Shown here piece by piece: positions 9,201 through 19,580 of a stretch of DNA of 33,034 bases. Source of the DNA: Thiomargarita sp. (GTDB taxonomy: Bacteria; Pseudomonadota; Gammaproteobacteria; Beggiatoales; Beggiatoaceae). Positions within the stretch are counted from its first letter, which is position 1. Every line of letters begins with the position of its first letter. A program made the position numbers and the translations under genes. Under the pieces are notes generated by a model. The model was not told the DNA's origin. It saw only the letters and a list, made by a program, of their open reading frames with translations, and did no database searches. The stretch lies in assembly GCA_022729575.1 (NCBI GenBank), contig DZAL01000018.1:1290-34323 (forward strand), read 5' to 3'.

Positions 9201-12200
9201 ATGTTTAAACAGCTCAAAATACGTTCGAAACTGCTACTGGTAATGTTATCTATCAGTTTAATCCCAATTATCCTGATGGGTACTACCATGCTCATCAAAA
9301 GTCGCCAAGCACTGATGCAACAATCCTTTAGTCAATTAGAAAGTGTCCGCGAAATAAAAAAATCCCAACTGGAACGTTTTTTTAACCGACTTCGCAATGA
9401 CATGGCGATCCTCTTAGAAATGGTCTCCATTTCACGACAAAATGCCGCGCAAAAATTGCAAACCGTACAAGAAAATAAAAAAGCACAATTAGAACGCTAC
9501 TTTCAAGAACGTTTAACGGATATTAAGGTACTCTCCGAAAATGACTCCATCGCTCAATCGTTGGAACAATTTAACGGTGCCATCGCCATGGAAGAGCATA
9601 AAATTAAAGGAAATGCTTGGCACTTAGTCGTGGAAAGGTTTGGCCAAGAGTTGACACAGTATAAAGAGAAACAGAATTATTACGATTTATTACTATTAAC
9701 CACCGACGGCACCATAGCCTATACCGTCGAACAACGAGGAGATTTAGGAGAAAATGTAAACACCAGTAAAATTCAACATAATAGCTTGAGTGAAGCATTC
9801 CATCAGGCGATGAAGACCAAAACCGCCGTCATTCGAGATTTTGCGATTTATCCACCGGCGGAAAATCACTACCTGGCCTTTCTCGCCACCCCAGTTTTTC
9901 GCTCTGGTGAAGTAGTCGGATGCCTAGCCTTGGCCCTGTCGGCTGAGGCGGTAAATGCGATTGTGCAGCGCCAAGAAGGGATGAGTAATACCGAAGAAAC
10001 TTTTGTCGTGGGCGAAGACGAGGGACGTATCAGCTATCGCAGTGACCGAGTATTTAAATGGAGTAATCGCAACGTCATCGATCAAGAAGTGACTGGCTCT
10101 GATATTAATGAAGCCTTGGCTGGTCGTAGCAATATTGCCATTAAAAACGACCAAAGTGGCAAACTAGAATTAGGTGCCTACGCACCTTTACAAATTCCCG
10201 GCTTACATTGGGGCATTATCACTTCCATTGCGTTGGAAGAAATTATTACGCCCAAATTGGCAGGACAACAAAGCGATTTTTTTACCAACTATATCACTCA
10301 AAATAACTATTATGACCTCCTACTCATTCATCCTCAAGGCGAAATTTTTTACTCAGTCAAACACGAAGCAGACTATGGCACGAACATTCTGGCTGGTAAA
10401 TTTGCTAACTCTAATCTCAGTCAATTAGTACAAACGGTATTACAAAATAACGAATTTGCGATCAGCGATTACGCGCCCTATCCTCCTGCTAACCAAGCTC
10501 CAGCAGCGTTTACTGCGCAATCTGTATTACGCACTGACCACACCGTTGAACTTATTGTGGTACTTCGCTTAAGCGAAAATAATATCAATCGTATTATGCA
10601 GCAACGTGCTGGGATGGGCAAGACCGGTGAAACTTATCTGGTCGGTAGTGACAAGTTAATGCGCTCGACCACTTTTTTATCACCCAACACCCACTCCATG
10701 ACCGTCTCCTTTGCTCACCCCGATAAAGGCATAGTTGATACTGAAAGTAGTCGCGCTGCGTTACGTGGTGAAACCGGCGAAAAAATTATTCAAGATTACC
10801 AAGGCCATTGGGTATTATCAGCTTACACTCCCATTCAAATGGGTAGCCACACTTGGGCACTGTTAGCGGAAGTTAATCTGACGGAAGCCTTTGCCTCCGT
10901 TTACACCTTACAGTGGATGCTAGGTGGTTTAATCATCCTCGTGGTCTTAACTGTACTTTGGCTAGTAAGACGTTTTATCAAAAATTTCATGTCCCCGCTC
11001 TTAGAAGTCAACGAACATTTGAAAACTCTGGCCCAGGGTCAACTAAGTGACACCGACATTATTTATTACCAACACGACGAGGTGGGCGAAATTGTGACCT
11101 CTTGTAAACGATTAAAAGAAGCCATTCGTAGCACCATCCAACAAGCCAATGAAATTGCCGCCGGCAACTATGAAACTCAAGTCTCTTTACTGTCTTATGA
11201 AGACCAATTAGGCAATGCGTTAACCGAAATGGTTCGCACTTTACGTGCGGTGATAAAACAAGCCAATGCCATCGCCGCTGGCAATTATACGGAAACCATT
11301 CAACCTCTCTCCGACCGTGACCAGTTAGGTAACGCCCTGTCACAAATGACTAAAACTTTGTGCGAATTGACCGCGAAGAATGCCTTGGAAGACTGGTTGA
11401 AAACCGGGCAAATGCAACTCGCTAAAGAGCTTAGTGGCAACCCCAATATCACGACTCTAGCTAATAACATCATCAATTTTCTCTGTCATTACCTAGAAGC
11501 TAAAGTAGGGCTATTTTATTTAGTGGAAGAAGTTCGCTCCAAACCAAACCATACCGACCATAATAGCGACCACCATAACACCGGAGTACCAAGCGAAGCT
11601 TTATCCCAACAATTAAAATTGTTAGCCAGTTATGCCTACACCTGGCGCAAACATCTAGCCAATCGTTTCGACTTTGGAGAAGGAATCGTTGGCCAAGCAG
11701 CTTTAGAGCAACAACCCATTATCCTCACCCAGGTCCCTCTTGAGGCCATTCATATTCAATCGGGACTGATTGACAATGTGCCACGCCAAGTGGCGGTTAT
11801 ACCATTTTTATACGAAGGCAAGGTAAAAGGAGTCGTTGAATTAGGTTTCTTCAATGAAATCGTGGAACGACAATTAGAATTTTTGGCTACCGCCATGCCC
11901 AGTATTGGAATTGCCGTGAATACCGCCGAATCCAGAACCCAATTACAAGAATTATTGCAACAAAGTCAAGTTCAAACCGAAGAATTACAATCTCAAACCG
12001 AAGAATTACAATCTCAAACCGAGGAATTACAGAGTCAACAAGAGGAGTTACGAGAAGCTAATGAAGAATTAGAAGAGCGGACCCGTGAATCAGAGCGGCA
12101 ACAACGAGAGGTGCAAGAACAAAATCGAGTGTTGGAACAAAGTCAGCTAATTTTGCAAGCTAAAACTAACGAGTTAGAATTGGCTAATAAATACAAATCC

Positions 12201-19004: not shown

Positions 19005-19580
19005 ATGTGGAATAACGTATTACTATTATTGAAGTATTATGTCATGAGCGTCGGCTTTTATTTAATCAGCGGAATCCTGATAGATGCCGCCGCGGAACCA
19101 CCGTCAATCGTCACCGAGTATCAATTGAAAGCGGTTTACTTATTCAATTTCACTAAGTTTATTAAGTGGCCGGCGACGGCTTTTGCCAATGATGATTCCC
19201 CCTATAGCATTTGTATTTTAGGAGAAGACCCCTTTCAAGAAAAATTAGATTTGGCCGTCAAAAATGAAACCGTACATAAGCGCTCGGTGACCATCCAACG
19301 TCTGAAGACTGGGCAAACCGCTAAGATTAAATTTTGTCATGTCCTATTTATTAGTCGTTCCGAACAAAAACAATTAGATAATATTCTGGCCCAATTACAC
19401 CAAGCACCAATTCTCACCGTCAGCGATATGGACGACTTTATAAGTCAAGGCGGGATGATTGGTTTTTACTTGCTAAAAAATACTAAAGTACGGTTTTCGA
19501 TTGATCCTCAAACTTTGAGTGAAACCGGTTTAGTCGCCAGTGCCCAATTGCTCCAAATTGCGAATATCACTCGCCGCTAA
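19005..19580 (+). CDS. YfiR/DUF4154 family protein (periplasmic regulator family), signal peptide or membrane anchor
   Basis: LKAVYLFNFTKFIKWP motif and downstream blocks (ICILG, CHVLFIS, PILTVSD, GGMIGFYL, RFSID) collinear with YfiR family; AGAGGAG RBS. Confidence 0.65.
   Translation: MWNNVLLLLKYYVMSVGFYLISGILIDAAAEPPSIVTEYQLKAVYLFNFTKFIKWPATAFANDDSPYSICILGEDPFQEKLDLAVKNETVHKRSVTIQRLKTGQTAKIKFCHVLFISRSEQKQLDNILAQLHQAPILTVSDMDDFISQGGMIGFYLLKNTKVRFSIDPQTLSETGLVASAQLLQIANITRR

Follow-up and report, generated by a model that had tools for sequence, protein, structure and literature searches.

The 33-kb window analysed here, which is the whole stretch of 33,034 nucleotides from contig DZAL01000018.1 of a Thiomargarita sp. 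assembly (GCA_022729575.1), carries a run of four open-reading frames (ORFs) on the plus strand that encode three histidine kinases, HK1 (9201–14303), HK2 (14460–16547) and HK3 (16599–18740), and a YfiR-like protein (19005–19580). An ORF check of the window returned these coordinates, and the 156-bp and 51-bp spacings between the kinase genes, exactly as given in a preliminary description of this DNA. The cluster is preceded by an AT-rich region (8880–9200, plus strand) which, as read from the sequence, is likely to be its promoter region. Identical copies of the locus were found on contigs of sulfidic cave biofilm metagenomes and in the metagenome-assembled genome (MAG) GCA_973680025.1, and the best relatives of several window genes are from Beggiatoaceae (Thioploca, Thiomargarita, Parabeggiatoa and Beggiatoa), which makes the source a Beggiatoa-like gammaproteobacterium. 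Domains were assigned with Pfam on all window ORFs of 100 aa or more, and loci of YfiR-like relatives or orthologues that were compared with it are referred to by labels beginning with L, L001 being the MAG copy. Taken together, we read this as an ordinary multikinase two-component locus on the chromosome of a Beggiatoa-like sulfur bacterium rich in repeats, and as one that carries a displaced YfiR-like paralogue; as a joint explanation, including both a kinase-to-kinase cascade and a YfiR-like target encoded elsewhere, it is the best we can offer and its chances seem to us evenly balanced.

HK1 is a 1700-aa membrane hybrid histidine kinase. Hydropathy places hydrophobic segments at aa 11–32 (TM1) and 572–589 (TM2), with a 539-aa periplasmic region between them, in which Pfam detects a dCache_1 domain (aa 79–341, 62 bits, above the gathering score) and a second dCache_1 match (aa 364–555, 31 bits) that falls below the gathering score when scored alone. 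The tandem HAMP described previously is reasonable by eye, where a canonical HAMP (aa 590–645) is followed by two 39-aa HAMP-like repeats in an array spanning 590–724, though Pfam scores only one. A GAF domain (750–906), a coiled coil, HisKA (999–1066, His1008) and HATPase_c (1115–1240) follow, and the protein ends in three receivers, REC1 (1314–1422, Asp1362), an atypical REC2 (1438–1541, Asp1484) and REC3 (1582–1693, Asp1631). Perfect heptad repeats (three times QSQTEEL, at ~aa 925–950, nucleotides 11970–12050) lie in the signalling helix that connects GAF to the phospho-acceptor domain, and a change in their copy number would shift the register of the helix. In a homologue search, the sensor module of HK1 was found at ~50% identity on chemoreceptors, SpoIIE phosphatases and GAF proteins, and because of this distribution we regard it as a free-standing, shuffled module.

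HK2 (695 aa) and HK3 (713 aa) share the architecture REC-HisKA-HATPase_c-REC-REC, and are soluble, with no hydrophobic segment found in either by hydropathy. In HK2 the N-terminal receiver (Asp59) is followed by a coiled coil, HisKA (His195), HATPase_c, REC1 (Asp493) and an atypical REC2 (Asp614); the corresponding key residues in HK3 are Asp67, His207, Asp505 and Asp626. H-box and G-box motifs are intact in all three kinases, with (N/T)GIG and GGTGLGL present in each, and HisKA and HATPase_c were matched by Pfam with E-values between 1e-19 and 1e-31. Alignment with CheY demonstrated that the acceptor aspartate (equivalent to CheY D57) is kept in nine of nine receivers, so HK1, HK2 and HK3 each combine the H-box histidine, the N/G1/G2 motifs and a receiver with acceptor Asp that characterise hybrid histidine kinases. 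Three receivers are atypical, namely REC2 of HK1, HK2 and HK3, which occupy the last position of a shared core–REC–REC unit; their first acidic residue is replaced by V or E and the usual G-x-x-D-Y-L-x-K-P motif is missing. Pfam and the motif positions thus uphold the domain composition reported earlier for the three kinases. Against the NCBIfam equivalog models (BarA, TorS, LuxQ, HrmK, ArcB, RcsC and others) the kinases matched through generic domains alone, far below the cut-offs.

Long identical peptide blocks between HK2 and HK3, which had been taken to suggest an evolutionarily recent tandem duplication, do exist (up to 28 aa); they correspond to the G2, N and H boxes and to receiver motifs, and share 78–88% nucleotide identity. 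A pairwise comparison at the nucleotide level does not bear out the recent date, however. HK2 and HK3 share 63.3% amino-acid and 64.6% nucleotide identity, the longest identical nucleotide run is 21 nt, and synonymous divergence (dS) is ~2.5 overall, with synonymous sites saturated. By domain, dS exceeds 1.5 throughout and is lowest in the N-terminal receiver (1.55), the best conserved domain between the two proteins (81–84% amino-acid identity), with saturation elsewhere; as even this receiver is so diverged at synonymous sites, gene conversion between HK2 and HK3 was rejected. Judged by this divergence, HK3 is an old paralogue of HK2, and the identical blocks are the mark of purifying selection on catalytic and receiver motifs.

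The three kinases are related beyond their individual domains. The HK1 core with its REC1 and REC2 is colinear with the HK2 core, REC1 and REC2 (31% identity over 625 aa); of the HK1 receivers, REC3 is the closest to the N-terminal receivers of HK2 and HK3 (36–39% identity). Because of this colinearity and this likeness, the cluster may be read as sensor–(core–REC–REC)–RECn, RECn–(core–REC–REC), RECn–(core–REC–REC), in which RECn denotes a common receiver class. We therefore considered a route in which HK1 would sense a periplasmic ligand through its 539-aa region with two dCache matches, and the signal would pass TM2, the HAMP array, GAF and the coiled coil to reach the kinase core (His1008). 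HK2 and HK3, which have no input domain other than their N-terminal receiver, would need to be switched on or off by another kinase phosphorylating that receiver. As REC3 is the cluster receiver most like the N-terminal receivers of HK2 and HK3, the HK1 core may phosphorylate the RECn class both in cis (REC3) and in trans (HK2 and HK3), and we infer from the sequences that phosphotransfer runs in this direction, from HK1 to HK2 and HK3. Behind each core come a typical and an atypical receiver, which both retain an acceptor Asp and might act as internal acceptors or sinks, and the signal would leave through an Hpt protein or a response regulator encoded elsewhere. The outcome would be a branched kinase-to-kinase cascade and not a classical His-Asp-His-Asp relay, for which neither an Hpt nor a terminal output response regulator was found within the 33-kb window. 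Pfam detected no Hpt, DNA-binding or GGDEF domain in the ORFs scanned, and an Hpt profile built from a Beggiatoa protein gave no hit when run on the window translated in six frames (best E = 1.2); in a positive control it recovered 13 proteins of other loci. The earlier statement that Hpt, output regulator and DNA-binding domain are lacking near the kinases therefore holds within the window.

A serious, if rather unlikely, rival to the cascade is that the three kinases are parallel inputs, each of which autophosphorylates, loads its own receiver and converges with the others on one unlinked Hpt. In all three a complete core precedes a typical receiver with an acceptor Asp, an external Hpt would be required in any case since the window has none, and related giant kinases adjoining YfiR-like genes elsewhere carry Hpt domains of their own (L022, L126). 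Yet something must phosphorylate HK2 and HK3, whose sole input domain is a receiver, and the class to which that receiver belongs is also attached to HK1. Comparable multikinase networks and unusual hybrid kinases are familiar: LuxN, LuxQ and CqsS converge on LuxU in Vibrio, and the GacS, RetS and PA1611 network on HptB in Pseudomonas; in Myxococcus, RodK is a kinase with three receivers, AsgA a receiver followed by a kinase, and RedCDEF a multikinase network. The window resembles these systems (with LadS also counted in the Pseudomonas network) in having several hybrid kinases without their own Hpt, kinases with a receiver as the only input and a kinase with three C-terminal receivers. It differs in that no orthology to them emerged, all NCBIfam equivalog scores being far below the cut-offs.

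The fourth gene encodes a 191-aa protein that matches DUF4154 (PF13689) with 150.8 bits across profile positions 1–142 of 143, and the DUF4154 assignment made previously is thereby confirmed nearly end to end. An AlphaFold model built on 40 homologues (mean predicted local distance difference test score, pLDDT, of 93) was compared to known structures with Foldseek, and the best matches were all YfiR crystal structures (4yn7, 4zhu and 5eb1), with target-normalised template-modelling (TM) scores of 0.72–0.76 at 15–17% identity; the match to 4yn7_A had an E-value of 1.9e-7 and a TM score of 0.76. At the sequence level, phmmer against the YfiR sequences in the PDB gave E = 0.13. The protein scored 49.7 bits against the NCBIfam YfiR equivalog NF053586, below its cut-off of 85, but 145.9 bits against NF053591 (the TOL_0243 family), above the cut-off of 125 and covering profile positions 1–148 of 150. 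YfiR has two conserved cysteine pairs, Cys71–Cys110 and Cys145–Cys152, the disulfide of the latter being essential for its stability (PMC4655355). Equivalents of Cys71 and Cys110 are present in the window protein (SICILG and FCHVLF), but in the alignment with YfiR none of its cysteines falls at Cys145 or Cys152. Membership of the YfiR family, as it was worded before, is thus too strict a claim: the protein has a YfiR-like fold, yet it is not a true YfiR and belongs to the TOL_0243 YfiR-like family, all of whose invariant and nearly invariant residues it retains in the family alignment. It begins with a hydrophobic helix (aa 5–30) followed by AAA-E, and is presumably exported to the periplasm. 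The gene is, by the measure of its substitution pattern, functional and under purifying selection, with a ratio of non-synonymous to synonymous divergence (dN/dS) of 0.20, equal to that of HK3, in comparison with the 93% identical orthologue of a Baltic relative.

The closest characterised systems are YfiBNR (TpbB/DgcN; Pseudomonas aeruginosa and E. coli) and HmsCDE (Yersinia), with which the window protein shares the DUF4154/YfiR fold, an N-terminal export-like helix, the Cys71 and Cys110 equivalents and a gene position beside signalling proteins. The differences are considerable. The periplasmic domain of YfiN is now classed as CHASE8 (PMC8085984), and no CHASE8, GGDEF or OmpA-like domain occurs in any scanned ORF of the window, so that neither a YfiN (CHASE8-HAMP-GGDEF) nor a YfiB (OmpA-like lipoprotein) is encoded within these 33 kb, in agreement with what had been noted before. 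The neighbours are histidine kinases and not a cyclase, the YfiR-like gene lies downstream of the signalling genes and not upstream, and the protein itself departs from YfiR in overall identity, in the NF053586 score and in the Cys145–Cys152 pair.

To place the protein in its family we analysed gene context in 80 genome loci of relatives (36–51% identity). A downstream neighbour (a co-directional ORF starting no more than 300 bp after the YfiR-like gene) was found in 68 of the 80, and in 60 of these 68 it carried CHASE8 and HAMP, mostly in histidine kinases, whilst six carried the Plug domain of TonB-dependent receptors. The Plug domain was also found in 45 of 57 upstream neighbours (co-directional ORFs ending just before the YfiR-like gene), and the order receptor, DUF4154, CHASE8 kinase recurs in precomputed annotations of other contigs. 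This three-gene module of TonB-dependent receptor, YfiR-like protein and CHASE8-HAMP sensor is widespread (L006, L008 and L021–L096, in Acidobacteriota, Verrucomicrobiota, Gemmatimonadota, Bacteroidota and others). Our literature search found no paper describing it, and none on the TOL_0243 or YfiR-like family, DUF4154 leading to the structural work on YfiR. The module resembles a route for signalling across the envelope, and the receptor may do there what YfiB does in YfiBNR.

The closest relatives of the window protein (44–59% identity, in Beggiatoaceae and Thiotrichales) are likewise paired with TonB-dependent receptors or CHASE8 kinases. A receptor directly follows the YfiR-like gene in L004, L017–L020, L024, L038, L097 and L098 and precedes it in L009 and L010, a giant CHASE8 kinase follows it in L022, and in L099 and L100, among the matches listed in a metagenome scan, it lies opposite a CHASE8 hybrid kinase and a REC-kinase. 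In L099 (523–11009) there are two YfiR-like genes in tandem, after which comes a TonB-dependent receptor; the genes for a CHASE8 hybrid kinase of 1218 aa and for a REC-kinase protein diverge from them. In L022 (820–6483, Beggiatoa sp. SZUA-411) the protein encoded directly after the YfiR-like gene has 1887 aa and consists of CHASE8-HAMP-HisKA-HATPase_c-REC-REC, four Hpt domains, a further REC and a class III nucleotidyl cyclase domain. The window protein belongs to the same HMM family as these module proteins, and hybrid kinases and REC-kinase proteins often follow there too, the latter being found near YfiR-like genes in L006, L019, L051, L099 and L100. The window departs from this usual context in having neither a TonB-dependent receptor nor a CHASE8 sensor beside its YfiR-like gene; the adjacent sensor kinase has two dCache matches instead, and the gene order is reversed.

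The spacers of the cluster were examined for transcription signals and repeats. Good Shine-Dalgarno sequences precede HK2 (AAAGGAGG), HK3 and the YfiR-like gene. The gap between HK3 and the YfiR-like gene is 264 bp in the window, but in the Baltic relative (93% identical) it is 36 bp with a good ribosome-binding site; the difference is accounted for by an array of three tandem 52-nt repeats (18781–18937), absent in the Baltic relative, each unit of which has an internal palindrome, GGACTGGCAGTCC...GGACTGCCAGTCC. The array could represent either an insertion in the window or a loss in the Baltic relative. Because of the 36-bp Baltic gap, HK3 and the YfiR-like gene are likely to be co-transcribed, and the single operon previously proposed is plausible on the Shine-Dalgarno sites and this gap, though it has to be set against hairpin repeats to which we return below. 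Among these is a 33-nt palindrome resembling repetitive extragenic palindromes (REP-like), AGATTTGACAACTTT(N2-3)AAAGTTGTCAAATCT, with ~25 copies in the window in nearly every intergenic spacer (e.g. 43–79, 3372–3408, 8506–8871, 14330–14366, 19587–19752, 27492–27764 and 32939–33021), often in tandem arrays with a period of 43–50 nt and with TTGACA on both strands. The copy at 14330–14366 occupies the HK1–HK2 spacer and comes after a weak hairpin whose tail is T-rich (14301–14318). At 19587–19752, after the YfiR-like gene, four copies stand at a 43-nt period, whereas the MAG copy (L001) has three of them and the Baltic relative a single one. The canonical receptor/YfiR-like pairs of L009 and L010 are accompanied by the same palindrome and by another dispersed repeat common with the window, from which it follows that they derive from a related organism that keeps such pairs. 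The top sigma-70-like match of a promoter scan (9154–9181, 11 of 12 positions) has its −35 hexamer within a REP-like repeat, and promoter and terminator matches, many inside REP-like repeats, were not clearly more numerous than in shuffled sequence; an Rfam scan of the window gave no match.

We infer that the YfiR-like protein acts on a target outside the window. It is a displaced paralogue from a family usually encoded with a TonB-dependent receptor on one side and a CHASE8 sensor kinase on the other, and would most likely act on a CHASE8 sensor or a TonB-dependent receptor encoded elsewhere in the genome, with HK1 a less likely target. The preliminary description, noting the absence of YfiN and YfiB, had suggested that it may pair with the Cache modules of HK1, a pairing that has adjacency as its basis and that our comparisons do not support. 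In its fuller form this proposal would have the protein recruited as a periplasmic allosteric regulator of HK1, binding the dCache region as YfiR binds the CHASE8 domain of YfiN, which we think unlikely. In its favour, no periplasmic signalling domain other than that of HK1 is encoded in the cluster, and a single transcript is suggested by the close ancestral spacing of HK3 and the YfiR-like gene. Members of the family nearly always have sensor kinases as gene neighbours, and purifying selection acts on the window gene, whose product, no more than 44–59% identical to its nearest paralogues, has room for a changed specificity. Against it, none of ~170 loci of relatives has a homologue of the HK1 sensor or HAMP-GAF region, and the partners found there are CHASE8 sensors or TonB-dependent receptors. 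The HK1 sensor is the shuffled module described above, the window protein retains all of its family-conserved residues, two cytoplasmic kinase genes stand between it and HK1, and the synteny is known from two very close lineages alone.

Beyond the REP-like array lie two genes that follow the YfiR-like gene in the same order in the window and in the Baltic lineage, where the successive gaps are 68 bp and 152 bp. The first (19778–20089, plus strand) encodes a two-pass membrane protein of 103 aa, in which a lysine-rich loop joins two hydrophobic helices and the C-terminal tail bears an invariant Cys-x10-Cys. Homologue alignment gives the tail of the family as R-x-C...T-R-C (invariant R89, C91, T100, R101 and C102). 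The family is rare, a search of 1.84 billion proteins having given ten homologous clusters; the window and Baltic proteins share 85% amino-acid identity with a dN/dS of 0.51. The small ORF adjoins the YfiR-like gene and is probably co-transcribed. It was also considered as a general partner of YfiR-like proteins and rejected, since its family profile matched orthologous loci only among 178 loci. The second gene (20177–22762, plus strand) encodes a full-length, 861-aa homologue of the major vault protein (MVP), with Vault repeats and a shoulder domain (Pfam Vault, Vault_2, Vault_3, Vault_4 and MVP_shoulder) and a dN/dS of 0.07 against its Baltic orthologue. Bacterial MVPs have been linked in a preprint to gliding taxa (Myxococcales, Cytophagales and Oscillatoriales), Beggiatoaceae not being listed (10.1101/872010). 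The window homologue shares 76–78% identity with those of Parabeggiatoa and other Beggiatoaceae and 67–70% with those of many filamentous cyanobacteria, where it is annotated as "colicin uptake protein". Beggiatoaceae also glide. A part for MVP in the signalling system was rejected, as its neighbours in Parabeggiatoa and on another Beggiatoaceae contig are unrelated, and we treat its adjacency to the YfiR-like gene and kinase cluster as lineage-specific.

That the YfiR-like protein belongs instead with these downstream genes, in an envelope module with the small membrane protein and possibly the MVP homologue, would suit the conserved gene order with its Baltic gaps, the real and conserved small-protein family whose Cys-x10-Cys tail may face the periplasm (the lysine-rich inter-helix loop suggests, as a reading of the sequence, that both termini point outward) and the disulfide dependence of YfiR itself (PMC4655355), yet it is very improbable, as none of the other YfiR-like and MVP loci among the 178 compared has the small ORF, whose dN/dS is relaxed, and MVP has unrelated neighbours in other Beggiatoaceae.

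Several points weigh against our preferred explanation, the kinase cascade with an unlinked YfiR-like target. Phosphotransfer specificity is not readable from sequence, and HK2 and HK3 could be fed by unrelated kinases. Neither the supposed Hpt protein nor the CHASE8 or TonB-dependent partner was seen in the search, which covered the 33-kb window. The position of the YfiR-like gene downstream of the kinases, unlike its usual place upstream of its partner, could just as well point to a new partner in a new arrangement, and the synteny of kinases and YfiR-like gene, found only in two very close lineages (dS about 0.15–0.2), is uninformative either way. Finally, as every spacer in the window carries hairpin repeats, and the hairpin after HK1 is weakly terminator-like, separate transcription units are possible.

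The wider flanks are housekeeping genes, with rodA, mltB-like, rlpA-like, dacA and a class IV aminotransferase upstream, and a metallo-beta-lactamase-fold gene, a phosphoesterase, a thioredoxin-domain gene and ilvIH downstream. A pair of 79-nt inverted repeats (8572–8650 and 24153–24231, 96–97% complementary), the sole two copies in the window, exactly flanks a 15.5-kb block of HK1, HK2, HK3, the YfiR-like gene, the small ORF, MVP and the metallo-beta-lactamase gene, with no transposase inside; this could be a chance placement of a dispersed repeat or the mark of an invertible or mobile block. A 174-aa ORF (1837–2361, plus strand) directly 5' of nadC matches retroviral-type aspartyl protease domains (gag-asp_proteas, 1.8e-27). 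Three tandem 63-nt repeats (95–99% identical, 32513–32723) lie within a 270-aa ORF without a Pfam match (32093–32905, minus strand).

By itself the locus adds little: Beggiatoaceae, cyanobacteria and myxobacteria often have clusters of hybrid kinases, and an NCBIfam model already exists for the YfiR-like family. It is valuable as a contrast, with an intact and selected YfiR-like gene that occurs without either of its usual partners and behind a Cache-type kinase. That a YfiR-type periplasmic regulator has exchanged a CHASE8 sensor or TonB-dependent receptor for a dCache hybrid kinase as its partner is unlikely, but if true this would be the first YfiR-like protein controlling a Cache-type histidine kinase, and one at the head of a kinase-to-kinase cascade. 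The contrast offers a clean test of partner specificity in YfiR-like periplasmic regulators. More useful is a by-product from outside the window, the widespread module of TonB-dependent receptor, YfiR-like protein and CHASE8 kinase.

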